Shown one piece after another: positions 1,796-26,590 of a stretch of DNA of 64,000 bases. The DNA comes from an uncultured Chloroflexia bacterium. Lineage in GTDB: Bacteria > Chloroflexota > Limnocylindria > Limnocylindrales > CSP1-4. The position numbers and the translations under genes are program-made. Location of the stretch: positions 1,280,001-1,344,000 of the forward strand of contig CAWEZH010000002.1 in the NCBI GenBank assembly GCA_963813535.1. Reading direction: 5' to 3'. Every line of letters starts with the position of its first letter. Positions within the stretch are counted from its first letter, which is position 1. A model generated the notes under the pieces. The model did no database searches and had not been told where the DNA came from. It was given only the letters and a program-made list of their open reading frames with translations.

Positions 1796-1820
1796 TCCCG
1801 GACCAGCGCGGCGGGCCGGG

Positions 1821-4309: not shown

Positions 4310-4395
4310 GAGCCAAGATCCCCCTGTTTCCAGCCGTCAACACCGTAACACGCCCATATCGCCGACACGTGGCGATATCGCAAACGCATAACAGG

Positions 4396-5523
4396 CTATG
4401 TAGGCGGCTCCCCGAATCGGGCCGGATCGAGCGCGGCCGGGATCGGTGATCCGATACCCGCCACGAGGTCGGCGATCAGGCGTCCCGAAGCAGGTCCGGT
4501 CGAGATGCCCCACGGTCCGTGGCCGGCCGCGACCCACAGCCCATGCGTCCCAGGGACTCGCCCGATCAGCGGCCGCCCGTCAAGGCTGAGTGGTCGGGCG
4601 CATAGGCGGGGCAGATCGCGCGGGGCGTCGCCGATGGCCGGGACGAACGACGCTCCACGCCGCACGATGGACGACACCAGCGCCAACGGGTCCGGCTCCT
4701 CGACCAGGAAGGTCGAGCCCAATGAGCTGGAACCCGCCGCGGTGACGAGGCTGAACGCGTGGGCGGCGTCATCGTCTTCCTCGATGTCGGGCTCGATCGA
4801 GATCTCCGCTTCCTCGAGCACATGCCGCGGTGGTTCGGCCAGCCGTACCGGCACCACCACGCCCCAGCGACGAACGATCGGCTGCCAGGCGCCACTCGGA
4901 TCGACGATCCCCGGCGTCCATGGGCCCGCGGCCACCACCACGTCACTCGCGGCGAGGCGCTCTCCATCGGCGATGCCGACGCCGAGCACCCGCTCGCCGT
5001 CGCGCCAGATCCGCGCGTCACCGAACCGGATCTCGACACCGCGGTGCTCGGCCAGCAGGCGGTACGCGTGCGTCGCGGCCGCCGGCGCCACGGGGTACCC
5101 GATCGATAGACGGCACGCGGCCACCCCATCCGCGAGTGACGGCTCGAGCCGTCGGACCTCGGATGGTGCGAGAAAGGACGGCTCGAGTTGGGGATACATC
5201 GATGCCAGCTCGGCCGCCACGCGTCGCACACCGTCGACGTCGCGGGTGACGCTCAGCAAGCCCGCGGGCTCTGGGGCGATGTCGAGCCCGTCCAGCTCGC
5301 GATACATCGCGAGCGTCTCGACATACAACTCGATCAGGACGCTGTCGAAGGGGTGCTGGACGACACCCGAGTTCCGACCCGATGCACCCGCCGCGATGGC
5401 GGTCTTCTCGACGAGCACGACCCGCCGACCGCCTTCCGCAAGATGCGCCGCGGCCGAGACACCGACGATACCGCCGCCGATGACGACGACATCGACCGTC
5501 GGGCGGGTGCGCTGCGCAGGCAT
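4396..5523 (-). CDS. FAD-dependent oxidoreductase (DAO/glycine oxidase family)
   Basis: [35 protein letters not shown]. Confidence 0.9.
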
Positions 5524-5634
5524 CGGCCGATGATGGCATGGACCAACCCCCGTGGATCCGGCGGTCCGATGCGGAGCCGCCGAGCGGTGGTTGCGTTGTC
5601 AACGACTACGGGAACGTGTACCATCCCGGACGGC

Positions 5635-6132
5635 ATGACCCTCACCGACCACGCTGACGCGCGGCCCCTCTCGTCGCGCGACCCGAGACTGGAGCCCTGG
5701 CGCGCCTTCCTTACCGCCCATGCCCGCGTCACGCGTCGGCTGGACGAGGAGCTGCGTGCCGAGCACGACCTCTCGCTGGCTGAGTACGACGCGCTCCTGA
5801 CGATCGCCGATGCACCAGAACGCCGGATCCGGATGCGACAACTCGCCGATCGCGTGATCCTCAGCAAGAGCGGTGTCACGCGGTTGATCGACCGTCTCGT
5901 GCTCGATGGCCTGGTGGAGCGCAAGGCCTGCGCAAGTGACGCTCGTGGTGCCGAGGCGGTCTTGACGTCGGCGGGTCTCGAGCGCCTCCGCCGAGCGTCG
6001 CGGACCCATCTGCGAGGGATCGCCCAGCACTTCCTCGCCGCCGTCGAAGACGCCGACATCCCGACCATCCAGCGGTCGATGCTGGCGGTCGCCGACCATG
6101 CCGGTCCGGGCAGCGGCGACGCCTCCGACTGA
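5635..6132 (+). CDS. MarR family transcriptional regulator
   Basis: LSLAEYDALL..RMRQLADRVILSKSGVTRLIDRL..DARG wHTH. Confidence 0.9.
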   Translation: MTLTDHADARPLSSRDPRLEPWRAFLTAHARVTRRLDEELRAEHDLSLAEYDALLTIADAPERRIRMRQLADRVILSKSGVTRLIDRLVLDGLVERKACASDARGAEAVLTSAGLERLRRASRTHLRGIAQHFLAAVEDADIPTIQRSMLAVADHAGPGSGDASD

Positions 6133-6862
6133 CGACGCCGGCTCGTCCGGTCGGGGCCGGCTGTACGTTGGCACGAGCGGGTTCGCCTATCCAGGCTGGA
6201 GCCCGCGCTTCTACCCGCGTGGACTGAAGGGCGACGGCTTCCTCCGCCACTACGCGTCCCTGTTGCCGGCGGTCGAGCTCAACAACACGTTCTACCAATC
6301 GCCATCGCCGTCGAAGGTCGCGACCTGGCTCGACGCGACCCCGCCCGACTTCCGCTTCAGCGTCAAGGCCCAGCGCGGCGGGTCGTGGAGGGCCATGGGC
6401 GGGTCACCCGATCAGGGGCTGCCCTGGCTCACGGACCCGATCCGGAAGTTCGGCGACAAGCTCGGGACCATCCTGTTCCGCGTCCCGGACACGGCGAAGC
6501 GCGATGACGACCGACTCGGGGCGCTGCTGGAGGCGTGGCCCAGGGAGCTGCCCTTGACCATCGAGTTCAGGGATCCCACCTGGGCCGTCGACGAGGTCAC
6601 GACGCTGTTGCGAGATGCGGGGGCCGTGCTCTGCACGACGGAGGCCGCCGAGGACGAGGGACCGCCGACACTTCGGCGCACCGGCTCATTCCTCTATCTC
6701 CGTCTCCGCCGACACGACTACGCACCGGTCGAGGTCGCCGCGTGGCACGACCGGCTCGAGCCGTTCCTCGCCGCAGGCGACGACGCGTTCGTCTTCTTTC
6801 GCCACGATGAGACGGGTCGTGGCGCCGAGCTGGCTCTCGAGCTCGGCGCGACCTTCGATTAG
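6098..6862 (+). CDS. DUF72 family protein
   Basis: YVGTSGFAYPGW, VELNNTFY, FRFSVKA, YLRLR. Confidence 0.9.
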   Translation: MPVRAAATPPTDDAGSSGRGRLYVGTSGFAYPGWSPRFYPRGLKGDGFLRHYASLLPAVELNNTFYQSPSPSKVATWLDATPPDFRFSVKAQRGGSWRAMGGSPDQGLPWLTDPIRKFGDKLGTILFRVPDTAKRDDDRLGALLEAWPRELPLTIEFRDPTWAVDEVTTLLRDAGAVLCTTEAAEDEGPPTLRRTGSFLYLRLRRHDYAPVEVAAWHDRLEPFLAAGDDAFVFFRHDETGRGAELALELGATFD

Positions 6863-7191
6863 CCCGTGCCGCGCGAGTACTCCGCCGGCCCGAACATCAC
6901 GAGCAGGACCAGGCGCTCCTCGATGTCGAGGAAGCGATGCTCGACGGCCGCACCGACGAAGACGACGGATCCGCTTCGGATGGGCCGCACCTCGCCACCG
7001 ACCATGACCTTTGCGCGGCCGGACATCACCACGTACAGCTCGTCCTCGGTGTGGGGCGACTGCGGATCGGTCGCACCGGCATCGAGGACATACAGGCCAC
7101 CCGACAGGTCGGGGACGGAGACGAACTCGTGATAGAGGCGACCGCTCGCCGTCCGAGCCGACTCGAGCTCGTCGAGCTCCCATGCATCCAT
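6859..7191 (-). CDS. Cupin domain protein
   Basis: QSPHTEDELYVVMSG..VFVGAAVEHRF. Confidence 0.85.
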   Translation of the reverse strand: MDAWELDELESARTASGRLYHEFVSVPDLSGGLYVLDAGATDPQSPHTEDELYVVMSGRAKVMVGGEVRPIRSGSVVFVGAAVEHRFLDIEERLVLLVMFGPAEYSRGTG

Positions 7192-7278
7192 CACCCGAGC
7201 CTACTGCCCAAGCCGGCACCGCGGGGCGGCGAGGTCCGCCTGACGACCCATCCGGACGATCCCCGCTAGCATCCGCCG

Positions 7279-8541
7279 ATGCGAACGGCGCTCGCCACCT
7301 CGTTGCTCGCGATCGTCGTCGTGGGCGCCTGTGCGAACCCCGTGCCGTCCCCCGCCACTCCCGGCGCCTCCGCGCCGGCCAGCTCCTCCGAGGCGGCAGC
7401 CCCGAGCAGCGCGGCGCCGTCCCCGACTACGGTGCCTTCGGGCGGACCGGCCGTCGGCGAGCCGCCCCGACTCTCGATCGAACCGGTCATCGACTCGCTG
7501 ACAACACCGGTCGACATCGCCTGGCGACCTGATGACCCGGACACGCTGTTCATCGTCGAACAGGTCGGCCGCATCCGCATCTTCCGCGACGGCCGACTCA
7601 TCGAGCGGCCGTTCCTCGACATCGGCGGGCTGGTCCGCGCCGGCGGGGAGCAGGGGCTGCTCGGCCTGGCATTCCTTCCGAGCGGCGAGGCAGGTCGCTT
7701 CTTCGTCTACTACACCGACGCCGAAAACCAACAGGTCGTCGCTTCGTACGACACCGATCCGGATGATCCGGACGTGGCCGCGCCGAGCACGGCCACGATC
7801 TGGCTTCGCATGGCGGATCGCTTCGGCAACCACAACGGTGGTTCGCTGGCGTTCGGGCCGGATGGCTACCTCTATATCGGGACGGGCGATGGTGGCGGTG
7901 CGGGCGACCCGCTCGACTCCGGTCGGCACCTCGATACGCTGCTCGCCAAGGTCCTCCGGATCGACGTGGCCGGTGCTCCCTCAGACGGCGATCCGCGCTA
8001 TGGCATCCCGCCGGACAATCCGTTCGCCACGACCGCCGGTGCGCGCCCCGAGATCTGGTTGACCGGCCTGCGCAACCCGTGGCGGATCCGGTTCGATCGC
8101 GCGAACGGCGACCTGTGGATCGGCGACGTCGGGCAAGGCGATCGCGAGGAGATCGACGTCGCGCGGACCGGGGTCGGTGGCCTCGACTACGGATGGAACC
8201 TCATGGAAGGCACCGCCTGCTTCCGCTCGGCCGACTGCGATACGACGGGCCTTACCCTGCCGGTCACGGAGTACGACCACGACCTGGGTTGCTCCGTCAC
8301 CGGCGGGACCGTGTACCGCGGCGCGGGCGATCCCACGCTCCGAGGCTGGTACATCTTCTCGGACTACTGCTCGGGCGAGTTCTGGGCCATCGATGCCGCG
8401 CGTGACACGACCGAGCAGCCGGCGATCGTCGCCGAGACCGATCTGTCGATCAGTGCGATCGCCGAGGATGCCGCGGGGGGGCTCTACGCAACCGACCTGT
8501 CGACCGGCCAGCTGCTCAGGATCACTGCCCGCGGCGGTTGA
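7279..8541 (+). CDS. PQQ-dependent sugar dehydrogenase (GSDH) family lipoprotein
   Basis: Lipobox VGAC; GEQGLLGLAF, NHNGGSLAFGPDGYLY, GLRNPWR. Confidence 0.9.
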   Translation: MRTALATSLLAIVVVGACANPVPSPATPGASAPASSSEAAAPSSAAPSPTTVPSGGPAVGEPPRLSIEPVIDSLTTPVDIAWRPDDPDTLFIVEQVGRIRIFRDGRLIERPFLDIGGLVRAGGEQGLLGLAFLPSGEAGRFFVYYTDAENQQVVASYDTDPDDPDVAAPSTATIWLRMADRFGNHNGGSLAFGPDGYLYIGTGDGGGAGDPLDSGRHLDTLLAKVLRIDVAGAPSDGDPRYGIPPDNPFATTAGARPEIWLTGLRNPWRIRFDRANGDLWIGDVGQGDREEIDVARTGVGGLDYGWNLMEGTACFRSADCDTTGLTLPVTEYDHDLGCSVTGGTVYRGAGDPTLRGWYIFSDYCSGEFWAIDAARDTTEQPAIVAETDLSISAIAEDAAGGLYATDLSTGQLLRITARGG

Positions 8542-8547
8542 TCCGCG

Positions 8548-9195
8548 CTAACTGGCGCGGTAGGTCACGGTCACCGTGACGGCGACTTCGAGCATGCCGG
8601 CCTCGACCGGGGTGGCCACGTCGGCGGCCATGGCCATCCGCTCGGCTTTCGGAAAGGGTCCGGGCGGGCGGGGTGGTCCACCTTCCAGGATGTCGGTCAC
8701 GCCCTGGATCGTCAGGCCCGCAGCCTCGGCGAGGACGTCGGCACGGGCGCGCGCCTCGCCCATCGCCGCGACCCTGGCTTCCCGCTCCGGGAGCGCCGGG
8801 TCCGAGACTCGGAACGTGAGGCCGTCCATGCTCGTCGCCCCGGCCGCCAGTGCGGCGTCGACCACGGCCCCGAGCGTCGCAAGATCACGAACCGTGACCT
8901 CGACGACGTTCGCGACCTCGTAGCCGGTCAGCGTCGGGGCACGACCGTCGCGGTAGTCGTAGCGCGGTTGCACGGAGAGGAGCGAGGTCCGTACATCGGG
9001 GTGGGCGACACCGGCGCCTTCGACCGCGGAGAGGATGGCGTCCATCTGCACGCCGGCCTGGGCACGGGCTGCTTCGACCGAGGGCTTGGCGACGGTGACG
9101 CCCAAGCGCAGGTCGGCGACGTCGGGCTGCACCGCGATGCGACCTGTGCCGCTTACGACGATCGTGCCGGCGGCCGACGTCTTCGTCTCGGGCAT
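8548..9195 (-). CDS. SIMPL (DUF541) domain protein
   Basis: IVVSGTG..PDVADLRLGV..ARARADVLAEAAG; AAGGAGG upstream. Confidence 0.85.
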   Translation of the reverse strand: MPETKTSAAGTIVVSGTGRIAVQPDVADLRLGVTVAKPSVEAARAQAGVQMDAILSAVEGAGVAHPDVRTSLLSVQPRYDYRDGRAPTLTGYEVANVVEVTVRDLATLGAVVDAALAAGATSMDGLTFRVSDPALPEREARVAAMGEARARADVLAEAAGLTIQGVTDILEGGPPRPPGPFPKAERMAMAADVATPVEAGMLEVAVTVTVTYRAS

Positions 9196-9357
9196 GGATA
9201 CAGGCCTCCTTGCGGGACGGGCCCACGATGGTAGCGGTAGACCGAGATCGATGGTCCTGAGGTGGTGCGTGGACGCGCCACGAGCGAGCGCGTGCCATGC
9301 GCCACCGGAGCCCCGGTCGGACCCGCCTGCCTTTCCCGTCTCGGGCCCGCGCGTCAT

Positions 9358-9409
9358 TGTCACGGCGTTGCAATCCCGCCTCGAGGGGACGCCACGGCGT
9401 CGCAATCCC
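9358..9409 (+). promoter_or_regulatory. Two tandem copies of the direct-repeat operator upstream of the GAF-PAS kinase
   Basis: TGTCA-CGGCGT-TGCAA at 9358 and CGCCA-CGGCGT-CGCAA at 9390; CACGGCGTYGCAATCCC repeats 32 bp apart. Confidence 0.6.
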
Positions 9410-9518
9410 ATCGGTAGTGCACTCGCGGTTCCGGACATGAAGCCAGGGCAGGCTGCGTGCTGGTCTCCGCGCGATACCCCGCGCACCCGTCATCCGCCCC
9501 TGATCCAGACGAGGTGCC

Positions 9519-11579
9519 GTGACCGCTCTACCGCCGATCACCCAAGAGACGGATGACGGCCGCCGCGCGCCGACGACCGACATCCCCACGCGCGGTGACA
9601 CGCTCCTCGACAAGGACGACGTGGCGCTTGCCACGTTCCTGGCCGATGCCGGCCGGATCCTCGGATCCTCGCTCGACAGTGCGGCGACGCTGCGACAGAT
9701 CGCCGACCTGATCGTCCCCGGCGTCGCCGATTGGTGCGCCATCGACATGCTCGATGCGGAGGGTCGGCTGATCCCTCTCGCGCTCGCCCACCGCGACCCG
9801 GAACGGGTCCGTCTCGTGGAGGAGCTTCGCACGAGGTATCCAGCCGACCCGGACGCCGATGTCGGAACGTACGCGGTCGCCCGCACCGGCCAGGCCATGG
9901 TCATCCCCATCATCGACGAGGCGACGATCGCAACCTCCGCCCGCGACGACGGCCACCAGGAGTTGCTCCGTCGGTTGCAGCTCCACTCGTGGATGTGCGC
10001 TCCGATGACGGTCGCCGGGAGGGTGCTGGGCACGATCGGATTCGCCGCTGCCGAAAGTGGTCGCACGTTCGAGGCACGACATGTCGCGTTCGCAGTCGAC
10101 CTTGCAGCGCGGGCTGGTGCCGCCATCGAGAATGCCCGCGCATTCCAGACGGCCGACCGTTTCCGCCAGATCCTCGACGCGGTCGCCGAGGCCGTCTTCG
10201 TCCTCGAGCCAGCGACCGAGATCATCCAGGGCACGAATCACGGCGCCAGCGTCCTGCTCGGGCGGTCCGCCCGCGAGCTCGCCGGCCACCGCCTCTCGGA
10301 CCTTGTCGAGGAGGGCGAGGACGGCCTGTCGCGGATCATCCGCGCCGTCAGGGAGGGTCGTTCGGAGGCGCGCACGATCCCGCTCCACTTCCTGCGCGAC
10401 GGAGCGCCATCTGTGCCGGCGGAGGTCCTGCTCCAACGAGTCGACCTGCCCGGCGAGCCACCCACGACCGTCGCGATCGCCCGCGACGTCCGCGAGCGAC
10501 AGGAGGCGCAGGGCCGGCTTAGGCGACTCGCGGAGGCCGAGCACGCTCGGGCGGCGGAGCTCAACGCGGTCATCCGGGCCATGGGCGATGGCGTCATCGT
10601 GTGCGGGCCGGACGGCAAGACCATCCTCGCCAACCCGGCCGGCCAGGCCATGTTCCCGGGTGGAGCCGAGACGAGCTATGCCAGCATCCTGTCCCGGCTG
10701 CACGATCCGGACGGCGATGCTCCCCCGCTGGGCACTCGCGCCGGGCCGGTGGTCCTCCGGACTCTCGCGGAGCCGGAGCGTTGGATCGAGGTCGCGACAT
10801 ACCCCGTCGCCGACAGGACCAACGACGGCGAGCCTGGCGGCGAGACGATCCTCGTCCTCCGCGACGTGACCGAGCAGCGGCAACGAGAGGCCGTCCGAGA
10901 GACGTTCATCGGTGTGTTGTCGCACGAACTGCGAACGCCGGTCACCACGATCTTCGGCGGCGCGCGCGTCCTCGCGCGTGAGGACAGCGGCCTGGATGAG
11001 GCGACACGACGCGAGATCCTCGTCGACGTGGCCGAGGAGGCCGAGCGGCTCAAGCGACTCGTCGAAGATGTCGTCGCGCTGAACCGCTTCGGCGAGAGCG
11101 ACGGGGACCTCGGGCGAGAACCGGTCCTGCTCCAGCGCATCGTGCCGAGCGTCGTCGCCTCGGAGGAGGAGCGCTGGCCGGGCGTCTCCTTCACGCTCGA
11201 GATGGTCCCCGGCCTGCCCACCGTGGTCGCCGACCCGACGTACCTCGAGCAGGTGATCCGGAACCTGCTCGCCAACGCTGCGAAGTACGGCGGTCCCGGC
11301 GCGGCGGTGGAGGTCGTGGTCGAATACGACCGGGTCGTCGACGAGGTCGCGGTATGCGTTCGCGACGATGGGCCGGGCATCGAGTTGCAGGAGGCCGAGC
11401 GGCTCTTCGAACTGTTCTACCGCTCTCCGAATACCGCGACCGCCACGACCGGCGCCGGGATCGGCCTGTTCGTCTGTGCGCGGCTGGTCCGCGCCATGGG
11501 CGGGCGTGTCTGGGCGAGGCCGCTGCCCGCGGGTGGCGCCGAGTTCGCCTTCGCGCTCCGCGTGATGCCCGACGACTGA
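9519..11579 (+). CDS. GAF-PAS-PAS sensor histidine kinase (cytoplasmic)
   Basis: GAF (VPGVADWC), PAS segments, SHELRTP H-box, NLLANAAKY, GAGIGL; no TM. Confidence 0.92.
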   Translation: MTALPPITQETDDGRRAPTTDIPTRGDTLLDKDDVALATFLADAGRILGSSLDSAATLRQIADLIVPGVADWCAIDMLDAEGRLIPLALAHRDPERVRLVEELRTRYPADPDADVGTYAVARTGQAMVIPIIDEATIATSARDDGHQELLRRLQLHSWMCAPMTVAGRVLGTIGFAAAESGRTFEARHVAFAVDLAARAGAAIENARAFQTADRFRQILDAVAEAVFVLEPATEIIQGTNHGASVLLGRSARELAGHRLSDLVEEGEDGLSRIIRAVREGRSEARTIPLHFLRDGAPSVPAEVLLQRVDLPGEPPTTVAIARDVRERQEAQGRLRRLAEAEHARAAELNAVIRAMGDGVIVCGPDGKTILANPAGQAMFPGGAETSYASILSRLHDPDGDAPPLGTRAGPVVLRTLAEPERWIEVATYPVADRTNDGEPGGETILVLRDVTEQRQREAVRETFIGVLSHELRTPVTTIFGGARVLAREDSGLDEATRREILVDVAEEAERLKRLVEDVVALNRFGESDGDLGREPVLLQRIVPSVVASEEERWPGVSFTLEMVPGLPTVVADPTYLEQVIRNLLANAAKYGGPGAAVEVVVEYDRVVDEVAVCVRDDGPGIELQEAERLFELFYRSPNTATATTGAGIGLFVCARLVRAMGGRVWARPLPAGGAEFAFALRVMPDD

Positions 11580-11582
11580 CGC

Positions 11583-12557
11583 CTAGAGCCAGTGGCGCCA
11601 GCGGGCGACGCCGATGATCCCCACGGCGAGGCCCACCATGCCACCGATCACCAGCAGGAAGTTCGAGGGCTCGTCGAAGAACCCGAGCTTGAAGTTCATG
11701 CCCATGATCCCGGCCAGGACGACCGCGGGCAGCAGGACGGCCGACAGGAGCGTCAGCGTCCGCATCACGTCGTTCGCGCGCTGGGACACCCGACCCATGT
11801 GGATGTCGAACGTCCCGAGGAGGCGGTCGCGCAGTCCCTCGACGGAGGACATCGCGGCCTCGAGACGGTCGACCAGCCCGGGCCACGGCTTGCCGATCGC
11901 ATCGTCGATGCCGATCCTCGGCAGACCGAGCGTCGAGAAGGCGTCGCGATGGGGAGCGAGCGTCCGGCGCACCTCCCCGATCCGAAGGCGTAGCGCGACG
12001 ATGGCCGTCAGGATGTCGTCGCCGTGCCGCCCGTGGAGTGCACGCTCGTCAAGCTCGTCGATCTCTCGCTCGATCTGCTCCACCAAGAGGAAATAGCCGA
12101 CAAGCACTTCGTCCACGAGGGCCGACACCAGGTCGCCCGCAGCGAGGTGGCCGAGGGCGGTCTCGCCGTCGAGGCCGTCGCGGAAGCGCTTGAGGGCCTC
12201 GACGTGCCCCTCGTGGACGGTCACCACCACGTCCTTCCCGGCCAGCAGGTCGATCTCGCGACGGACCAGTCGACCGGGATCCTTCTCGTCAGGCTCCATG
12301 GCCTGGAGCGTGATGTGGAGCAGGTCGGCGGTCCGGGTCAGGCGCGCGCGCCCTTCATCCGTGGTCAGTCGCTCCATGTCCGCTTCGCGCAGGCCGAGCA
12401 ACTCGACCGTATCCACGAGCTCCCTTTCCTCCTCGCGGCTGTCGATGTCGACCCACAGCAGCCGTTTCGGGCCGAGCGAGCGGACGATCTCTTCGGTCAG
12501 CTCGACCCGGCGATCGCGTGCATCCGCGTCGAAAAGGCGGGCGCTGACGCTGCTCAG
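11583..12557 (-). CDS. corA: CorA-family divalent cation transporter (probable CTG start)
   Basis: GMN motif with two C-terminal TMs; the frame stays open upstream through LLWVDID to a CTG overlapping the upstream TGA. Confidence 0.8.
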   Translation of the reverse strand: MSSVSARLFDADARDRRVELTEEIVRSLGPKRLLWVDIDSREEERELVDTVELLGLREADMERLTTDEGRARLTRTADLLHITLQAMEPDEKDPGRLVRREIDLLAGKDVVVTVHEGHVEALKRFRDGLDGETALGHLAAGDLVSALVDEVLVGYFLLVEQIEREIDELDERALHGRHGDDILTAIVALRLRIGEVRRTLAPHRDAFSTLGLPRIGIDDAIGKPWPGLVDRLEAAMSSVEGLRDRLLGTFDIHMGRVSQRANDVMRTLTLLSAVLLPAVVLAGIMGMNFKLGFFDEPSNFLLVIGGMVGLAVGIIGVARWRHWL

Positions 12558-12691
12558 CGTACGAAGCTCAGCAGGCCGGCAGCGACGACGGCGACGACGG
12601 CGACCAGGTACTGCAGCGCGAGCATCGTCCGGTCATGGGGTGGATCGACGTCCCATGAGCCGGTCGGCGTGGCGGCGGGATCGAACAGCAT
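12554..12691 (-). CDS. 45-aa small membrane protein
   Basis: GAGGG RBS; MLFDP..MLALQYLVAVVAVVAAGLLSFVR; stop overlaps the corA start. Confidence 0.6.
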   Translation of the reverse strand: MLFDPAATPTGSWDVDPPHDRTMLALQYLVAVVAVVAAGLLSFVR

Positions 12692-12854
12692 CGATGTAGG
12701 GCCCTCATGCGTCCGTGGTCGACGGCATCGTGCTGGTCGCCGCCATGCGACGAGGGCAGTTAGCGGAGCGTAGCGCATCGCGTCCGCATGACAACGCCGC
12801 AGTCGTGGCGCGTGCGGGCACCACCCCGCCGCTTCGTGTCCGCATCACTCGGAA

Positions 12855-12920
12855 TGCGAGCAGCCTGCAACGTCACTCGGCATCGCGCTGGCATCCCCGA
12901 CGCGTGCTTCCCCGTACGGT
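12855..12920 (+). promoter_or_regulatory. Direct-repeat operator + 44 nt + -10 element
   Basis: TGCGA-GCAGCC-TGCAA-N44-TACGGT. Confidence 0.7.
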
Positions 12921-12993
12921 CGGAACGGCCCACGGATGGCCGACCGGTGACGGCCTCATATCGGTCGCGCCTGGAACCCCAGGAGGTATACCC

Positions 12994-13155
12994 ATGCTTA
13001 AGCGACTTCTTCTTTTGGTGGCCCTAGGGGCTGCCCTCGCGGCCTGCTCGCCGTCCGGTAGCGCGAGCTCGCCGGGAACGGAGACCATCGCGCCGGTCGA
13101 GTCCGGCGTGCCGTCGGCCAGCGAGATGCCGAGCGAGTCCGCCTCGCCGTCCTGA
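12994..13155 (+). CDS. 53-aa small lipoprotein with Ser/Pro-rich tail
   Basis: AGGAGG RBS; MLKRLLLLVALGAALAAC lipobox; followed by a hairpin. Confidence 0.8.
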   Translation: MLKRLLLLVALGAALAACSPSGSASSPGTETIAPVESGVPSASEMPSESASPS

Positions 13156-13170
13156 TCGACCACAGCTACC

Positions 13171-13201
13171 GACGCCGGGCCCCGCAGTGGGGTCCGGCGT
13201 C
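13171..13201 (+). terminator. Intrinsic terminator-like hairpin
   Basis: GACGCCGGGCCCC / GGGGTCCGGCGTC stem. Confidence 0.7.
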
Positions 13202-13241
13202 TTCGTGTCCGGATCCCCGCGACCACGAAGTCACGCGGCGG

Positions 13242-13307
13242 ATTCATGCCGTTGTTACGCGCCGGCCCCCGTCCGTTGTCCGAAGACTTCGTGACGACGA
13301 CGACAGT
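13242..13307 (+). promoter_or_regulatory. Direct-repeat operator + 44 nt + -10 element
   Basis: ATTCA-TGCCGT-TGTTA-N44-GACAGT. Confidence 0.55.
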
Positions 13308-13378
13308 GGCGCCGAACCCCGAACGGGTCATAACCCCAGCAAGCGGGTGAGACGCCCGCAAGGGGAAGGAGGTAGATC

Positions 13379-13660
13379 GTGAGCATCATCGCGTGGATCG
13401 TGCTCGGTGCAATCGCCGGGTACTTGGCCGGTTTTCTCGTCAAGGGTGACGAGGGGCTTGGGATCATCGGGCACATCGTGCTCGGGATCGTCGGCGCGCT
13501 CATCGGCGGGTTCGTCGCCGGGGCACTGTTCAACAGCGATCCCATCAACGGGGCGCTCGACATCAGCTCCATCGTCGTCGCGACGATCGGTGCCGTCGCC
13601 ACGGTCGTGGTCGTGAGTGCCGTGATGGGCCGGAGCCGCGTGGGTCGCGGGCCCATCTGA
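13379..13660 (+). CDS. GlsB/YeaQ/YmgE family stress-response membrane protein
   Basis: IIAWIVLGAIAGYLA..IVLGIVGALIGG; AAGGAGGT RBS. Confidence 0.92.
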   Translation: MSIIAWIVLGAIAGYLAGFLVKGDEGLGIIGHIVLGIVGALIGGFVAGALFNSDPINGALDISSIVVATIGAVATVVVVSAVMGRSRVGRGPI

Positions 13661-13696
13661 GCCCCCAGTCCGGGCCACCGCCCGGACGCCTGAATG

Positions 13697-13726
13697 ACGG
13701 AGCCCACCTCGCCAGGTGGGCTCCGT
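13697..13726 (+). terminator. Hairpin (terminator-like)
   Basis: ACGGAGCCCACCT-cgcc-AGGTGGGCTCCGT followed by TGCTTT. Confidence 0.65.
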
Positions 13727-13762
13727 TGCTTTCACCATCAACGCACAGGAAGGAATCACCAG

Positions 13763-14239
13763 ATGTCGAGGATCGTCGAATCCATCGATGTGGACGTCCC
13801 CGTCCGCATGTCGTACGCCCAGTGGACGCAGTTCGAGGAGTTCCCGCGCTTCATGGAGGGCGTGAAGGAGGTCCGCCAGGTCGACGACACGACGATCGAG
13901 TGGACTGCTGAGATCAAGAGCATCGAACGATCGTGGAAGGCTGAGATCACCGAGCAGGAGCCGGACACCGTCATCGCATGGCGCTCCACGAGCGGCGCCA
14001 CGAACGACGGGCGAGTCACGTTCGAGCCGCTGGGCGAGAACCGGACGAGAGTCACCCTGCAGCTCGACGTCGAGCCCGATGATCCGATCGAGAAGGCCGG
14101 GGACGCGCTGGGCTTCGTCGAGCGCCAGGTGGAGGGAGATCTGCGCCGGTTCAAGGAGTTCATCGAAGCGCGAGGAACGCCGACCGGCGGCTGGCGGGGC
14201 GAGGTCGGGGGCGGCCAGAAGGTTGGGAGCAGCCGCTGA
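13763..14239 (+). CDS. SRPBCC / polyketide cyclase-dehydrase family protein
   Basis: SIDVDVPV..YAQWTQFEEFPRFMEGV..DLRRFKEFIE..GGWRGEV. Confidence 0.92.
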   Translation: MSRIVESIDVDVPVRMSYAQWTQFEEFPRFMEGVKEVRQVDDTTIEWTAEIKSIERSWKAEITEQEPDTVIAWRSTSGATNDGRVTFEPLGENRTRVTLQLDVEPDDPIEKAGDALGFVERQVEGDLRRFKEFIEARGTPTGGWRGEVGGGQKVGSSR

Positions 14240-14371
14240 GCCGCGAGGCCCATGCAAGGGCCAGCAGGCCGAGTGCACGGACGACCGTGACGTGAATGGG
14301 CCCACGCTGCTCATGTGGCTCCTGTACCACTGGGGGTCCGGGAGCCACATCTACGCTATGAGGACGACCCG

Positions 14372-14674
14372 ATGATGGACGCACCCGCCATCGAGCAGAC
14401 ACCAGGGACGCACCGCGCGCTCTTCGCGTGGTTCTCGAGTCCGCGCGTCGCGGTCCGGACCGCCGTCCGCCTCGGCGAGACGGTGCCTGGGGCCCGTGTC
14501 TGCATCCGACCGTCCGAGGATCACGGAGCTGAAGGGCCGGTCGTAGCGCTGAGCGCCCAGATCCCGTGGTCGTTGTCGACCATGGTGACCCGCCAGCTCA
14601 GCGGTCTCGGCGTCGCCGTCCTGTGGGATGCCGACGACATCGTTGACGAGCCGACTCTCCGAGCGGCCGTATGA
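14372..14674 (+). CDS. Hypothetical protein
   Basis: GAGGA RBS and plausible composition; no recognised family. Confidence 0.5.
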   Translation: MMDAPAIEQTPGTHRALFAWFSSPRVAVRTAVRLGETVPGARVCIRPSEDHGAEGPVVALSAQIPWSLSTMVTRQLSGLGVAVLWDADDIVDEPTLRAAV

Positions 14675-14680
14675 CCGCCT

Positions 14681-14746
14681 TGTCATGCGTCTGTAATGTC
14701 GCGAGCCTGCGACATGGCGGCAACGGGACACGCGCTGGCCTACGGT
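14681..14746 (+). promoter_or_regulatory. Direct-repeat operator + 44 nt + -10 element (candidate sRNA promoter)
   Basis: TGTCA-TGCGTC-TGTAA-N44-TACGGT. Confidence 0.72.
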
Positions 14747-14752
14747 CAGCCG

Positions 14753-14851
14753 AACAGAAAGATCACCACAAGGCGGGCGCTTGTGACGGGGCGCACCTCC
14801 TTTAGCACGGACGGTTCGGGTCCCCTCCCCGGGCCGTCCGTCGCCTTTTCT
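14753..14851 (+). ncRNA. Candidate small RNA with anti-Shine-Dalgarno seed
   Basis: Begins 6 nt below TACGGT; hairpin CACAAG/CTTGTG; unpaired CACCTCCTTT at 14794-14803; 14-bp stem with TCCCCTC loop and a T tract. Confidence 0.55.
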
Positions 14852-14885
14852 GCGTCAGATACCAGCACACACGAGAGGTCATGAC

Positions 14886-15239
14886 ATGAGCGCGACGACA
14901 TCCGGCCGCGGGAACTCCGCGGCGACAGACAACGATCCGAAGGAACGCCTGGCATCGACTGCCCGCCAGGCCGCCGATACGGTCGGCGGTGTGGCCGGTG
15001 AGGTCGCCGCTCGCCTGCCCGAGGCGGCCACGACGACACGGGACGCGCTCGAAGAAGCGAATCGCCGGGTCCGAGCGGGGTCTGACGAGACGCTCAAGCT
15101 CGTGGGCGCCGCGTCACTGGCATTCGCCACAGGCCTGCTCTTCGGCGGCGCCAATCGACTGCTGGTGATCGCCGCCCTCGTGCCTGCCGCGCTGGTCGGC
15201 TCGGAGTACGCCCAGCGCCAGACGTCGACCACCAAGTAG
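14886..15239 (+). CDS. Hypothetical membrane protein (helical N-terminus, C-terminal hydrophobic hairpin)
   Basis: GAGAGG RBS; two hydrophobic segments. Confidence 0.7.
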   Translation: MSATTSGRGNSAATDNDPKERLASTARQAADTVGGVAGEVAARLPEAATTTRDALEEANRRVRAGSDETLKLVGAASLAFATGLLFGGANRLLVIAALVPAALVGSEYAQRQTSTTK

Positions 15240-15267
15240 CGGTCACGTCCACGGCTTCGTCGCGCGG

Positions 15268-15333
15268 CGCAACGGCACTGATAGCAGCCGGCCGCCGCGA
15301 TGGGACATCCCGCAACACGCCCGGCCGTAAGTT
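15268..15333 (+). promoter_or_regulatory. Direct-repeat operator + 44 nt + -10 element
   Basis: CGCAA-CGGCAC-TGATA-N44-TAAGTT. Confidence 0.62.
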
Positions 15334-15379
15334 CGACCCGACCCGCGACCTGCGGGGGCGCGAAGGAGGTATCGAGCTG

Positions 15380-15583
15380 ATGGATGACGTGAAGCGCACC
15401 GCGCGTGAAGCGGAGAACGAGGCGAAGGAACAGGCTCGCCGAGCCGATGGCGATGAGAGCCTGGCCGACAAGGCCGCCAACGTTGGTGACGACGTCCGCA
15501 CAGGCCTTGGCAATGCCGGCGACAAGATCGACGAAGAGGTCGATCGCGCCAAGTTCCGCCAGGAGCACGGCGACGACGTCTGA
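15380..15583 (+). CDS. 67-aa hydrophilic CsbD/hydrophilin-like small protein
   Basis: AAGGAGGT RBS; highly charged; repeated ANVGDD/GNAGDK. Confidence 0.75.
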   Translation: MDDVKRTAREAENEAKEQARRADGDESLADKAANVGDDVRTGLGNAGDKIDEEVDRAKFRQEHGDDV

Positions 15584-15606
15584 TCGCCGACCCTGACCTC
15601 GAGATA

Positions 15607-15639
15607 GACGAAGCCCCGGCTCGCGGCCGGGGCTTCGTC
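15607..15639. terminator. Hairpin between convergent genes
   Basis: GACGAAGCCCCGGC-tcgcg-GCCGGGGCTTCGTC. Confidence 0.8.
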
Positions 15640-15661
15640 GCGTTTGACGACCGAAACCCCT

Positions 15662-16771
15662 TCACCTCGCCTTGCGTCGGCGGCTCGAACCTGCGGCCGT
15701 CCGTGCTCGCTGGCGGAGCAACCGCACGACCGCCATCTCTTCCGTCCGGTCAGCCTCGGTGGGCGGCGCCTGCTGCTGCTCGGCCGCGTCGACGAGGGCG
15801 CCACCGAGGCTCCCATCCAGATACGCATCGAGCACGGCGGGGTGGACGTAGCTGCCGCGAGCGACCGCCGGGGTGTTCCCGAGCTTCTCCGCCGTCAGCC
15901 GCATCGCCTCGACCACGTTCCGACGCGCTGCGGGCCCATGGTCCTCCGGCTGGAGGGCCCGAAGTGCGCGATAGGCGAGCAGCGTGCCGGCCCACGTTCG
16001 GAAGTCCTTGGCCGTGAAGTCGCCACCCGACGCCTCGCGCAGGTACTCGTTCACGTCGTCCGACGTGACGTCACGGAGCTCACCGTCCTCGTCCACGTAC
16101 TGGAAGAGGTCCTGCCCGGGCAGATCCTGGCAGCGGCGGACGATCGTCGCCAGGCGTCGGTCACGCAGCCCGACCTCGTGCATGGTCCCGCCCTTGCCCC
16201 GGAACCGGAAGCGCACGCTCGACCCGCGGACCTTGGCGTGTCGGTCGCGCATCGTCGTGAGGCCGAAGGATCTGTTGAGGCGTGCATATTCGTCGTTCCC
16301 GACCCGGATCAGCGTCAGTTCGAGCAGTCGGACGACAGTGGCAAGCACCTTCGCGCGCGACAGACCACGGCGAGCGAGGTCCCGCTCGCACCGACGGCGG
16401 ATGTGGGGCAACGCCTTGGCGAAGGCGATCATCCGCGCGAAGTTGTCGGTGCCGCGCTCGGCATGCCAGCGCGAGTGGTAGCGGTACTGCTTGCGCCCTC
16501 GTGCGTCGCGACCGGTCGCCTGCAGGTGCCCGTTGGGCCACGGGCAGATCCAGACGTCCGTCCACGCGGGTGGGATGACGATCGTGCGGATCCGCTCGAG
16601 GACGTCCGGATCGCGGATGGTTGCGCCGTCCGTGTCGCGGTACGTGAAGCCACGTCCGGCGCGGCGGCGGGTGAAGCCTGGGCGGCTGTCGGTCGAGTAG
16701 CGCAGGCCGCTGGCGCGTGCGACCTCACGCGGATCGGGGCGGCTGGCTGCAGTCGTCGGTGCGTCGGTCAT
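15662..16771 (-). CDS. DNA topoisomerase IB (bacterial, poxvirus-like)
   Basis: IPPAWTDVWIC, GRDARGRKQYRYH, IRVGNDEY, FRGKGG, FTAKDFRTW, LGNTPAVARGSYVHP. Confidence 0.95.
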   Translation of the reverse strand: MTDAPTTAASRPDPREVARASGLRYSTDSRPGFTRRRAGRGFTYRDTDGATIRDPDVLERIRTIVIPPAWTDVWICPWPNGHLQATGRDARGRKQYRYHSRWHAERGTDNFARMIAFAKALPHIRRRCERDLARRGLSRAKVLATVVRLLELTLIRVGNDEYARLNRSFGLTTMRDRHAKVRGSSVRFRFRGKGGTMHEVGLRDRRLATIVRRCQDLPGQDLFQYVDEDGELRDVTSDDVNEYLREASGGDFTAKDFRTWAGTLLAYRALRALQPEDHGPAARRNVVEAMRLTAEKLGNTPAVARGSYVHPAVLDAYLDGSLGGALVDAAEQQQAPPTEADRTEEMAVVRLLRQRARTAAGSSRRRKAR

Positions 16772-16822
16772 GACGGCCACGGTACGGGTGCCCGCCTCGC
16801 ACGGATACGGGTCGAGGGGCTT

Positions 16823-16888
16823 CGCTACATGCCTGCAATCTCGCATCCAAGCCGGGTTCGGCTTGCCGATAGGGACCATGCCGATACT
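16823..16888 (+). promoter_or_regulatory. Direct-repeat operator + 44 nt + -10 element
   Basis: CGCTA-CATGCC-TGCAA-N44-GATACT. Confidence 0.62.
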
Positions 16889-17004
16889 GGAAGTCGGTCC
16901 TGTCGCGACTCCTGCTCTGGGGGACGGTCGCGATAGGACTCCTTTCTACTCGGCGAACCGAGCCCGCAGGCGACGGTCGACCGGCCCCGCAGGAGACCCC
17001 GGTC

Positions 17005-17976
17005 ATGGACGCAGTCACCATCGACGGAGCATCGAAGCACTTCGGCGACGAGGTCGTCTTGAGCGACGTCACGATCTCCGTCCAGGAAGGTTCGATCCTC
17101 GGGATCATCGGGCCGTCCGGCGCGGGCAAGACCACACTGGTTCGCCTCATGACCGGTGCGCTCGCCCCGACCGAGGGCGAGATCCGGGTCATGGGCGAGG
17201 ACCCGCAGCACCTGAAGCGGCGCACACGCGAGCGGATCGGCTACATGCCCCAGCTGTTCGCTCTCTACCCCGACCTCACGGCCCGCGAGAACGTCGATTT
17301 CGTGGCTTCTCTGTTCGGCCTGCTGTGGTGGCGCCGCCGACGGCGGACGCGTCAGGTGCTCGAGCTGGTGGACCTGTGGGACGTGCGCAAGAGACGCGCG
17401 GGCCGACTATCGGGCGGCATGCAGCGACGCCTCGAGCTTGCCTCGGCCCTGGTGCACGACCCACAGATCCTGTTCCTCGACGAGCCGACCGCCGGGATCG
17501 ACCCGCTGCTCCGTGCCGCGATCTGGCACGAGCTGACGCGGCTCCGCGACGCCGGCCGGACCCTGCTGGTGACCACCCAATACGTCGGCGAAGCCGAGCG
17601 CTGCGACGCCGTGCTCCTCATCTCGGACGGCAGGGTCATCGCGACCGGCACGCCCGACGAACTGCGCCGGTCGGCGATCGGCGGCGACCTGGTGGAGATC
17701 GAGACATCCGAGCCGATCGACGCCAGCGCCCTCCGCAGCATCGGCGGAATCCGGCGCATCGAGCAGCGCGGGCCGAACGAGATCCGGGCGACCGTCGACG
17801 AAGCGTCCAAGGTCCTCCCGGAGATCGTCGAGGCGATCAATGCGCTCGGGATCGACGTCGATTCTGCTGCTGAGGCGCGCCCGTCCTACGATGAGGTCTT
17901 CGCCATCCTCGTCGAGCGGGCGCGGTCATCCCCGCCGGATGGCGAACGCACCGCCGGCGGCGAGCGAGCCGCCTGA
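17005..17976 (+). CDS. ABC-2 type transporter ATP-binding protein
   Basis: GPSGAGKT, LSGGM, LFLDEPT. Confidence 0.93.
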   Translation: MDAVTIDGASKHFGDEVVLSDVTISVQEGSILGIIGPSGAGKTTLVRLMTGALAPTEGEIRVMGEDPQHLKRRTRERIGYMPQLFALYPDLTARENVDFVASLFGLLWWRRRRRTRQVLELVDLWDVRKRRAGRLSGGMQRRLELASALVHDPQILFLDEPTAGIDPLLRAAIWHELTRLRDAGRTLLVTTQYVGEAERCDAVLLISDGRVIATGTPDELRRSAIGGDLVEIETSEPIDASALRSIGGIRRIEQRGPNEIRATVDEASKVLPEIVEAINALGIDVDSAAEARPSYDEVFAILVERARSSPPDGERTAGGERAA

Positions 17977-19169
17977 TGCGGACCATCCTCACCACCATCT
18001 GGCGGCTGCTCGCCTTCGTCGGCAAGGAGCTCGTCGAGACCGTTCGGCGACCAGGCGCGATCGTGAGCCTCGTGGTCGGCCCATTCCTGATCATGGCCGT
18101 GTTCGGGCTGGGATTCAGCGGCATCCGGCGCCCGCTCGAAACGATCGTCGTGATCCCGCCAGCGAGCCAGCTCCCCGCCACCGAGGCCGACTACCAGGAA
18201 CTCGCCGGACCTGCCCTCCACATCGCCGGCGTCGTCGGGGATCGGACCGAGGCAGAGGCGAGCCTGCGAGCCGGTGACATCGACCTCGTGGTGGTCGCCC
18301 CCGAGGATCCCGAGGGCGCCTTCCGGGCGGGCGAGCGCTCGACGATCGAGATCCTGGTCGACGAGGTCGACCCCGTGGCCGAGAACTACGCCACCATCCT
18401 CGGCGGCGCCCTGGCGAATGCGGTGAACCGACAGATCATCGAGCAGGCCGTCGAGGAGGGTCAGGGCTACGCGGTCCAGGCCGGCGAGGAGGCGGTGGAG
18501 GCACTGTCACCGGAGGTGGTCGCCGCGCCGACCGAGGCCCGCCTTGCCAACCTCGCACCACAGAGCCCGACCGTCACGTCGTACTTCGGACCGGCCGTCC
18601 TCGCGCTGATCCTCCAACACCTCGCCGTGACCCTCGTCTCGATGTCGCTCGTGCGCGAACGCTCCAGCGGTGTGATGGAACTGTTCCGGATCGCCCCGGT
18701 CACCGCCTCCGAGGTGCTCGCGGGCAAGGTGCTGGCCTTCGGCCTGCTCGGTTTCGTGGTCGCCGGACTGACGATCGTGCTGATGGTGACTTTCCTTGGC
18801 GTGCCGTCACTGGCCGATCCGGGGGCGCTCGCAGGGGTCGTGGGTCTGCTGCTCCTGGCGTCTCTCGGGTTCGGGCTGCTGATCGCCGTCGTCTCCGACT
18901 CGGAGCGGCAAGCCGTGCAGCTGTCCCTGCTGGTGCTGCTCGCCTCGGTGTTCTTCAGCGGCTTCGTCCTGGCCATCGACCAGTTCACGCCACCCGTGCG
19001 CGCGCTCGCGTATGCGCTACCGGTGACCCACGGGATCCAGCTGCTGCAGGACGTGATGCTGCGCGGGTCGACGAACAACCTATGGCAGGCCGGCGCGCTC
19101 GGCGTGATCGCCGCGGTGACGCTGATCGCGGCCTGGCTCCTGTTGCGCCGCAATATGCGAACGGCCTAG
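17976..19169 (+). CDS. ABC-2 type transporter permease
   Basis: N-terminal TM, extracytoplasmic loop, VRERSSG, multiple TMs, LPVTH. Confidence 0.9.
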   Translation: MRTILTTIWRLLAFVGKELVETVRRPGAIVSLVVGPFLIMAVFGLGFSGIRRPLETIVVIPPASQLPATEADYQELAGPALHIAGVVGDRTEAEASLRAGDIDLVVVAPEDPEGAFRAGERSTIEILVDEVDPVAENYATILGGALANAVNRQIIEQAVEEGQGYAVQAGEEAVEALSPEVVAAPTEARLANLAPQSPTVTSYFGPAVLALILQHLAVTLVSMSLVRERSSGVMELFRIAPVTASEVLAGKVLAFGLLGFVVAGLTIVLMVTFLGVPSLADPGALAGVVGLLLLASLGFGLLIAVVSDSERQAVQLSLLVLLASVFFSGFVLAIDQFTPPVRALAYALPVTHGIQLLQDVMLRGSTNNLWQAGALGVIAAVTLIAAWLLLRRNMRTA

Positions 19170-19183
19170 TAGCTCCGCAGCGC

Positions 19184-19249
19184 TGCCACGGGCCTGCAAC
19201 GCCCGCTCGCGCGATGCGCGCCAAGCCGTTGCGGCCTCACTGCCACCCT
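19184..19249 (+). promoter_or_regulatory. Direct-repeat operator + 44 nt + -10 element
   Basis: TGCCA-CGGGCC-TGCAA-N44-CACCCT. Confidence 0.62.
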
Positions 19250-19281
19250 GTGATCAGCGACCTCCCGCATGGAGAAGCCCG

Positions 19282-19467
19282 ATGACCGACGAACGAACCA
19301 ACGAGTTCCCGGGGACGCATACGGATGACGACGAGACGGGCGACGACGCCAGGGACGCCGTCGACCGCGAGCCGCAGCCCGACAAGGATGAGCCGAACCC
19401 GCTGCTGCGCGAGGGCGCGAGCGCCCCGGACGCCGCGGACATCGAGGACCCTGACGAGCAGCTGTGA
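19282..19467 (+). CDS. 61-aa acidic, probably disordered small protein
   Basis: GGAG RBS; D/E-rich; has its own candidate promoter. Confidence 0.7.
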   Translation: MTDERTNEFPGTHTDDDETGDDARDAVDREPQPDKDEPNPLLREGASAPDAADIEDPDEQL

Positions 19468-19492
19468 GAGCGGCGGCCTCGACGTCGCAGCG

Positions 19493-20623
19493 TCAGGCGG
19501 GGACTTCGGCCGCTCCGGTCGGCTCGATCTGGGGCTCCGCGATGATCGGGACCGTGACGCGACGGCGCGGCGACGACTCGTTGCCGAGCATCTCGCGGTA
19601 GATCGCCTCATAACCGTCGGTCATCCGCTCCACCGAGAACCGCTCGATGACCGAATCCCGGATCGCCTGGCGATCAAGATCGGCGACGCGGTCGACGCGG
19701 AACGCCATGGCGCGCACGTCGTCTCCGAAGAAGCCATCGACACCATCGCGAACGAGCTCCGGTAGTGCGCCCGTCGGCCGCGCGATGACCGGGGTGCCGC
19801 AGGCCAGTGCCTCGATGGCGACGAGACCGAACGGCTCCGGCCACGACCCGGGCATCAGCGCCGCGTAGCTCTCGGCGAAGAGCTGGTCCCGATCGGCCTG
19901 CGAGATCTCGCCCACGTACTCCACAGAGTCGCCGGCGGCCTTGAGGGCCGGATGGAAGACCTCATCGTAGTATTCGCGCTCGATGCCGCCGGCGGCGACC
20001 TTGGCGGCGATCTTCAGGCGACGCCCAGCCGCCTGGGCGATCTCGATCGACTCGACGATCCCCTTCTCGGGAGCGACCCGCCCGACGAAGCACAGCGCGT
20101 CCGAGCGCGCCTTGCCGAACGGCGACTCAGCGAGTCGAAGCCCGTTGTATACGACGCCCGCCCATGGGATGTCTGGATGGGTCGACGCCTGGTTCTGGCT
20201 GATGGCCACGAGCCCCTGTGGCGGATCCGCCAACAGCTCCTCGGCCCATGGCAGATCGAGACGACCGTGGAATGTGGACACGACCGGCACCGGCGAGATC
20301 CGCGCCAGCAGCAAGCTCATCCACTCGAGGTGACTGTGGATCAGGTCGAACTCGCGCACGTGAGCGAGGACCGCGTGCAACGTCTGCTGAAAGTACGGCA
20401 ACGAGTCACCCGTGTAGCCGATCGGCCGCAGGGCATTCGGGACCGTCTCGATGTGGCGCCCGGGCACGATCGAATCGCCGCTGGCGAACGTCGTGACGGC
20501 GTGTCCGCGCCGGTCGAGCTCGGTGACGAGGCCGTGCACGATCCTCTCCGTCCCGCCGTACGCGGCGGGCGGGACACGTTCGAACGGTGGTGCGACCTGG
20601 GCGATCCGAAGGGGAACTGACAA
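19493..20623 (-). CDS. Glycosyltransferase family 4
   Basis: RIAQVAP..YGGTERIV; EPFGLVAIEALACGTPVIA; TTG start after GGAG. Confidence 0.92.
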   Translation of the reverse strand: MSVPLRIAQVAPPFERVPPAAYGGTERIVHGLVTELDRRGHAVTTFASGDSIVPGRHIETVPNALRPIGYTGDSLPYFQQTLHAVLAHVREFDLIHSHLEWMSLLLARISPVPVVSTFHGRLDLPWAEELLADPPQGLVAISQNQASTHPDIPWAGVVYNGLRLAESPFGKARSDALCFVGRVAPEKGIVESIEIAQAAGRRLKIAAKVAAGGIEREYYDEVFHPALKAAGDSVEYVGEISQADRDQLFAESYAALMPGSWPEPFGLVAIEALACGTPVIARPTGALPELVRDGVDGFFGDDVRAMAFRVDRVADLDRQAIRDSVIERFSVERMTDGYEAIYREMLGNESSPRRRVTVPIIAEPQIEPTGAAEVPA

Positions 20624-26248: not shown

Positions 26249-26315
26249 TGTAATGCCGATGTATCGGTTTTGCAATGTCGGTCGGCCATCGGCGGCAGGG
26301 GTCGGCCGGGATGCT
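26249..26315 (+). promoter_or_regulatory. Triple direct-repeat operator upstream of the small gene and response regulator
   Basis: TGTAA-N6-TGTAT-N6-TGCAA; GATGCT at 26310. Confidence 0.65.
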
Positions 26316-26531: not shown

Positions 26532-26590
26532 GCGACGGTCCGCTGACGTTCGGACGCCTCGTCCGGCACCATTGACCCAGGAGGTGCCAT

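Follow-up and report, generated by a model that had tools for sequence, protein, structure and literature searches.

Organisation of the locus in the window and in related genomes

The window analysed here, a 64-kb stretch of DNA with a composition of 69% G+C, carries a predicted structured RNA of ~97 nt (14754-14851, + strand) located between a regulated promoter and the gene of a 117-aa protein (14886-15239, + strand). This protein ends in a C-terminal hydrophobic helix, and searches of Pfam and NCBIfam assigned it to no family with a cutoff as loose as E ≤ 10. The Atlas clusters closest to it consist of hypothetical proteins from Chloroflexota, and a weak lead points to DUF883_C (score 0.78). 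The 67-aa protein encoded behind it likewise has no family in Pfam or NCBIfam.

Related loci were collected with the 117-aa ORF, for which 135 homologues were found at E ≤ 1e-3. From an alignment of 30 homologues, 30 loci were retrieved from a collection of species-representative genomes. All come from metagenome-assembled genomes of Chloroflexota; their labels read Chloroflexia, Chloroflexota or Candidatus Limnocylindrales, and in one case Patescibacteria. Counts out of 31 refer to the window plus these 30 loci, all collected via the downstream 117-aa gene. Gene order is kept in most of them (neighbour genes named via Pfam): histidine kinase, CorA (minus strand), GlsB-type protein, SRPBCC protein, the RNA element, the 117-aa gene, the 67-aa gene, topoisomerase IB (minus strand) and an ABC transporter.

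Another noncoding hairpin was observed in the same region, at 14313-14348 (+ strand) of the window. It comprises 13 predicted pairs and a nearly invariant stretch of 34 nt, is preceded by three conserved blocks starting from ~14240, and is shared, with the same orientation, by the window and 25/30 loci, 3′ of GlsB or of GlsB-SRPBCC. A response-regulator paralogue closely follows it in two loci (L017 and L020). No Rfam match was obtained for this hairpin and no covariation was detected, its sequence hardly varying. It may represent another RNA of the same stress cluster. Between this hairpin and the promoter of the element, the window also includes a 119-aa ORF without family (14315-14674, + strand), whose conservation at the protein level (64-81% identity) is limited to L001-L006, the six closest genomes.

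A conserved promoter with response-regulator-type repeats

Two direct repeats with 11-bp spacing, TGTCATG-N4-TGTAATG, are located at 14681-14698 (+ strand), ~-65 from the predicted transcription start. Regulators of the OmpR/PhoB family bind direct repeats at 11-bp spacing, and judging from the behaviour of this family the repeats constitute a putative response-regulator site. The pattern has three matches in the window against 0.33 expected, a number reached by 0/100 shuffles. The other two matches overlap at 26249-26277 (+ strand), forming three repeats upstream of the regulator operon, 5′ of a 63-aa membrane-like ORF (26340-26531, + strand) which precedes the response-regulator gene. A triple repeat is also present upstream of the regulator orthologue in L025. 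The repeats at 26249-26277 suggest that the response regulator may control its own expression. Weaker matches to the direct repeats were noticed at 4369-4393 (minus strand), upstream of the gene of a PKD-domain protein (1821-4343, minus strand), and at 12770-12795 (minus strand), upstream of a small membrane ORF that precedes CorA; the genes behind these two boxes are possible further members of the regulon.

Downstream of the repeats, a conserved promoter block ATGGCGGCAACGGGACA (consensus GTGGCGAGTCCGGGACA; 14714-14730, + strand) covers the -35 region, and a -10 hexamer of the TAnnnT type, TACGGT, is found at 14741-14746 (+ strand). Across homologues this hexamer reads TACGGT, TACCGT, TAGGCT, TATCGT, TACGAT or TAGTGT: T1, A2 and T6 are kept and the middle bases vary. 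Such a fixed -10 pattern would place the start at ~14753-14755, near 14754, in line with the guess made in the original prediction. A scan with the sigma-70 consensus gave no promoter at this site, the -10 being recognised only via TAnnnT across homologues. A 70-nt profile of the promoter region (14680-14748) matches 31/31 loci with E values from 2e-18 to 5e-4, and the direct-repeat block is conserved in the homologous promoters. With this promoter present at every locus and its repeats shared with the region upstream of the regulator, placing the element inside the regulon, as had been proposed, appears reasonable.

Predicted fold of the leader RNA

A 121-nt stretch including the element folds better than its shuffled versions (z = -2.67; 1/200 shuffles equally good). 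Two domains were distinguished. The first, a sensor-like domain at 14770-14802 (+ strand) defined by MFE folds and covariation, consists of a helix P1 (14770-14776 paired with 14796-14802) enclosing a hairpin hp1, formed in the MFE folds by 14777-14782 and 14789-14794 with the loop GUGACG at 14783-14788. In P1, a G-rich strand pairs with a C/U-rich one, the helix including a mismatch, a bulge and G-U pairs. The P1/hp1 fold was obtained in 31/31 per-sequence MFE folds, made without the covariance model. Most of hp1 belongs to a 15-mer (14779-14793, + strand) which is exact in 31/31 loci and occurs once per locus.

This fold bears on the segment at 14793-14803 (+ strand), taken in the original prediction as the unpaired seed of a small RNA. 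The segment corresponds to the 3′ strand of P1: GCACCUCCUUU pairs with AAGGCGG (14770-14776) both in the MFE structure and in the ensemble. Mean P(unpaired) is 0.30 for the seed 11-mer and 0.20 for CCUCC, opening costs 6.3 kcal/mol, and the same pairing is predicted in 31/31 sequences and supported by covariation. The seed is thus not exposed as had been assumed. Nor was the small hairpin CACAAG/CUUGUG retained: it competes with the conserved fold at -7.1 versus -16.7 kcal/mol, and its full 6 bp are found in only 15/31 homologues.

The second domain is an intrinsic-terminator hairpin (14805-14844, + strand) with a 14-bp stem at 14807-14841, two further pairs and a UCCCCUC loop at 14821-14827. 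The terminator-like stem, its loop and the U tract that had been described at this place were all recovered. The G+C-rich hairpin 14807-14841, with its tail CGCCTTTTCT, is the strongest terminator-like site in positions 1-20000 of the window; it contributes ~23-26 kcal/mol and its loop is accessible, with P(unpaired) = 0.99. The U-rich tail CUUUUCU (14845-14851, + strand) was defined by the T count 3′ of the stem: over the 31 loci, the 12 nt 3′ of the stem contain on average 5.0 T (range 3-7), compared to 1.8 expected from composition.

In constrained folds of 8/31 sequences, P1/hp1 and the terminator formed independently of each other. Neither consensus folding of truncated alignments nor these constrained folds (8/31 sequences) revealed a conserved antiterminator partner for either arm of the terminator, and the 5′ arm found no consistent partner when the 3′ arm was blocked. 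An outer helix P0, joining the A-rich 5′ end with the U-tract, appears in the MFE structure of the window; across homologues 65% of its cells pair, in poorly aligned columns. Five homologues (L015, L017, L018, L023 and L029) carry an extra insert of 40-60 nt, partly hairpin-like, between the -10 and P1. Because of these inserts, the 5′ linker of the RNA, as aligned, is variable in length.

Conservation and covariation

Compared to the window, 25 loci show a mean identity of 93% (minimum 78%) in the RNA core, against 67% in the coding sequence and 53% in the spacer. The MAFFT alignment includes 44 invariant columns. The CCCCUCC of the terminator loop is present in 31/31 loci and the base of the terminator stem is invariant beyond pairing needs. 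The joint invariance of the hp1 loop, the G-run, the terminator-stem base and the C-rich loop is suggestive of a bound factor or of a tertiary contact.

A covariance model, R1, was built on our own structure and applied to 403 kb of sequence. It recovers the 31 true copies, a single one in each locus, with 85-118 bits, and the next best match reaches 21.7 bits. No second copy of the RNA was found in the 64-kb window or in the flanks, the other matches being at or below 21.7 bits or on the reverse strand of the terminator. Four loci have weak co-located matches (14-20 bits, E 0.02-0.4) ~800 nt upstream of the true copy, all on the + strand: L008 5019-5121, L011 5041-5136, L013 5039-5135 and L030 5041-5135.

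The alignment fitted to the model is biased towards the structure; in it, pairing is seen for 98.1% of structure cells, and 8 pairs are changed on both sides. On none of five covariation measures did any of 500 shuffles reach the observed value, and sliding the 3′ partners as a control lowered pairing to 45-51%. For the 12 pairs of the P1/hp1 helix, 96.5% of cells pair and 5 pairs are changed on both sides; the corresponding figures for the terminator are 99.4% and 3 pairs. P1 in particular varies in sequence with complementarity kept, and for this reason the seed 9-mer is kept in only 18/31 loci, with CCUCC in the 3′ strand of P1 kept in 19/31. Thus the stems are conserved and covary, whereas the seed that the original prediction expected to be conserved with them is not. 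A site acting at the DNA level was rejected on account of the compensatory changes, which argue for RNA. Judged by these comparisons of sequences, the element is a real, strongly conserved structured RNA of ~100 bases.

The element as a 5′ leader of the 117-aa gene

The element lies directly upstream of the 117-aa gene and on the same strand in 31/31 loci (30/30 relatives, the loci having been collected via this gene). The spacer between them (14852-14885, + strand) is poorly conserved and includes the SD GAGAGG at 14873-14878. Where a start codon was assigned (28 loci), 21-64 nt separate it from the end of the terminator's 3′ arm; in L012, the U-tract even abuts the SD, the tail running into GGAGG-N7-ATG. 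We found no conserved promoter-like block in the spacer, which in most loci is too short for a separate promoter. With the terminator so close to the start and the spacer so short, transcripts of the gene have to pass through the element, which is therefore the 5′ leader of the gene. The U-rich tail found in every locus makes termination look selected for.

We consider it probable that the element is a conserved structured 5′ leader acting as a transcription attenuator of 14886, a gene of the stress cluster, and that it had not been described before. An attenuating leader had been mentioned as the alternative in the original prediction and, given the fixed position of the element and a terminator 21-64 nt from the start, it becomes the preferred reading. 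According to this model, the promoter with its two response-regulator-type repeats and TAnnnT -10 would direct transcription from ~14754. The first ~50 nt would fold into P1 enclosing the invariant hairpin, directly followed by the conserved intrinsic terminator with its invariant C-rich loop and U-rich tail. Most transcripts would end at ~14851, giving an RNA of ~97 nt, and only read-through transcripts would express 14886, attenuation being layered on promoter control. The P1/hp1 domain might respond to temperature, to the ribosome, or to a protein or ligand. Like this sensing, the start site, the act of termination and the regulation of read-through are deduced from the arrangement of these features. 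The leader possibly also serves the 67-aa gene.

Against an attenuator, no conserved antiterminator or other structure excluding the terminator was found, the base and the loop of the terminator stem are invariant where an ordinary attenuator would not need it and would fit an RNA binding a partner equally well, and the linkage count rests on loci collected via the downstream gene.

Two other ways in which the leader might act on the gene were rejected. The SD of the gene is predicted to pair with the 3′ strand of P1 in only 3/27 loci with an identifiable SD (L012, L016 and L019), and sequestration of this SD in cis by the leader was discarded as no consistent partner was predicted. An RNA thermometer for the SD was discarded as well: the SD lies beyond the terminator, outside the melting helix, and its predicted pairing is inconsistent. 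The spacer carries CGTC[AG], complementary to the hp1 loop, in 14/26 loci compared to 7.8 expected, a count inflated by related sequences.

Complementarity to the SD of the response regulator and of other genes

The original prediction proposed a feedback on the ribosome binding site of the response regulator. The 9-nt match on which it relied is genuine: GCACCTCCT (14793-14801) is the exact complement of AGGAGGTGC (26579-26587, + strand), in the SD region of the regulator, 3 nt before its GTG start at 26591. An ATG located two bases before this GTG is followed at once by TGA. The SD-like strings quoted upstream of the GlsB, 15380 and 9519 genes are also present. The seed 9-mer has 3 occurrences in the window against 0.45 expected.

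Specific feedback on the regulator found no support. In duplex energy, the regulator ranks only 4/53 among the genes of the window for the seed and is outside the top 12 for the terminator loop. An SD-like motif is present at 23/53 predicted gene starts in the window, and any SD pairs with such a C-rich sequence. The 9-nt match therefore has little specificity, and the ranking of targets by duplex energy was itself abandoned as non-discriminating in G+C-rich DNA. In L025, the sole homologue with the start of the regulator in view, neither the 3′ strand of P1 nor the SD region is unchanged.

The idea that housekeeping genes are leaderless, and would be spared by an anti-SD RNA, received some support. 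At least five genes of the window (starts at 7279, 27356, 33144, 38385 and 39395) lack an SD and have a TAnnnT 6-7 nt ahead of their start codon, an arrangement suggestive of leaderless mRNAs for these housekeeping-type genes.

Comparison with known RNA families

Rfam 15, suggested as a check in the original prediction, gave no match at the gathering threshold in the 64-kb window or in any of the 12 related loci (out of 30) that were scanned. At E ≤ 10, the best match on 14400-15100 was ftsZ-DE, with 18.1 bits compared to a threshold of 72.2 bits; this match and those to miRNA families were dismissed as weak hairpin look-alikes at chance level. Our literature search found no regulatory RNAs described for Limnocylindria, and none relevant for C-rich-loop RNA motifs of Chloroflexi.

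The closest resemblance is to terminator-based 5′ leaders: the element separates a promoter from an ORF of the same strand, its structured domain is conserved with covariation, an intrinsic terminator is predicted just ahead of the SD, and the gene would be expressible only by read-through. Unlike these leaders, it has no detectable antiterminator, and the base of its stem and its loop are invariant in sequence. RNA thermometers such as ROSE and fourU rely on SD:anti-SD helices, and P1, an imperfect G-rich:C/U-rich helix with G-U pairs, resembles them, except that the SD of the regulated gene is found beyond the terminator and not in the G-rich strand of P1. The 6C sRNA has two C-rich loops, whereas the element has a single one of 7 nt, no Rfam match, and belongs to another phylum and context.

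With 6C of Actinobacteria, whose C-rich loops bind G-rich mRNA sites according to PMC6486639, the element shares a high-G+C organism and a C-rich hairpin loop as candidate interaction surface. RsaE/RoxS of Firmicutes are described, in PMC6158497, PMC5419742 and PMC8216469, as C-rich anti-SD sRNAs; similarly, the accessible C-rich motif of the element could pair with G-rich SDs, and its promoter is apparently under a two-component regulator. In contrast to RsaE/RoxS, it shows no covariance-model similarity at E ≤ 10, exposes one C-rich loop, that of the terminator, with a second C-rich stretch buried in P1, and is the leader of a gene instead of an independent locus. The element is thus a structured 5′ leader with a terminator, outside any named family.

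Alternative readings

Several readings would have the RNA act in trans. The one originally put forward, a free sRNA of ~100 nt using GCACCUCCU as an anti-SD seed to repress the response regulator (in a feedback) as well as GlsB, the 15380 gene and the 9519 kinase, now appears highly improbable. The exact 9-nt complementarity to the SD region of the regulator, the SD-like strings at the other named genes, a conserved promoter and terminator of its own and the apparently leaderless housekeeping genes speak for it; the seed, however, is held in a covarying helix (P(unpaired) 0.2-0.3, 6.3 kcal/mol to open) and poorly conserved (9-mer in 18/31, CCUCC of that strand in 19/31), the regulator does not stand out as a target, both partners differ in L025, and no locus shows the RNA without the downstream gene. 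What survives is thus a conserved RNA with its own promoter and terminator, not its independence from 14886. A dual function, in which the terminated leader would accumulate and act in trans on G-rich SDs through the CCCCUCC loop and not through the P1 strand, seems to us unlikely, though the strongest of the competing readings. Here the motif is both accessible and present in 31/31 loci, and the base of the stem is invariant beyond pairing needs. There are also precedents: in E. coli, 5′-UTR fragments derived from premature termination act as sRNAs or sponges (PMC7815308), and C-rich loops act on G-rich mRNA sites in 6C (PMC6486639) and RsaE (PMC6158497). On the other hand, no target was found with specific or conserved complementarity beyond a generic SD, the loop has only 7 nt so that full pairing of CCUCC needs the top of the stem to be opened (3.2 kcal/mol), and the invariance fits equally a tertiary contact or a protein site in a cis element. 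More speculative, and improbable in our estimate, is a decoy embedded in the regulon: the short leader would be an abundant stress-induced RNA titrating SDs genome-wide and sparing leaderless housekeeping mRNAs. If so, the C-rich loop, with a second anti-SD-like strand once P1 opens, would damp SD-led mRNAs, largely those of the stress cluster. In a bolder form, taken over from the original prediction, the P1-hairpin-CCUCCUUU arrangement seen in 18/31 members would mimic the 3′ end of 16S rRNA.

Two further readings keep the element in cis. Attenuation could be ribosome-mediated, the G-rich strand of P1 serving as SD for the invariant GUG (or a UUG-UGA) in hp1; a short frame translated through the terminator would then suppress termination, with P1 gating translation. 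The G-rich strand indeed lies ~6 nt upstream of the invariant GUG, and the frame from this GUG runs through the terminator in 30/31 loci. We nevertheless judge this very unlikely. A 1-nt insertion in L009, L010, L014, L016, L019 and L021 alters the peptide after 8 residues, and the frame of L026 reaches a stop after only 6 codons. Within the 15-mer, none of the third codon positions varies, indicating that selection acts on RNA and not on a peptide, and a lack of stop codons is to be expected in DNA of 69% G+C. A conserved leader peptide starting at the invariant GUG was accordingly rejected, its frame shifting between close relatives and ending after 6 codons in L026. The frame often ends beside the main start codon, which is explained by stops clustering at the ATGA/TGA of G+C-rich gene starts. 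Finally, the element could be a constitutive 5′-UTR structure, either a stabilising or processing element or a fixed ‘leaky’ terminator, with neither sensing nor activity in trans. This would agree with a very stable hairpin (~23-26 kcal/mol) and with the lack of an alternative fold in our analyses; 44 invariant columns, including both loops, in front of a protein only 53-82% identical exceed what a stabilising stem needs, and of all the readings we give this one the least credence. The attenuating leader remains our preferred reading.

Significance

Limnocylindria are abundant, almost uncultured Chloroflexota of soil and freshwater. The element adds to them an orphan RNA motif with unusually strong conservation, tied to a general-stress cluster under two-component control. 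It is a concrete candidate for a new class of attenuator or riboswitch, or for an anti-SD sRNA derived from an attenuator, and its covariance model is ready for wider searches. Should an effector be found, it would point to a function for a conserved, Chloroflexota-specific family of membrane proteins.
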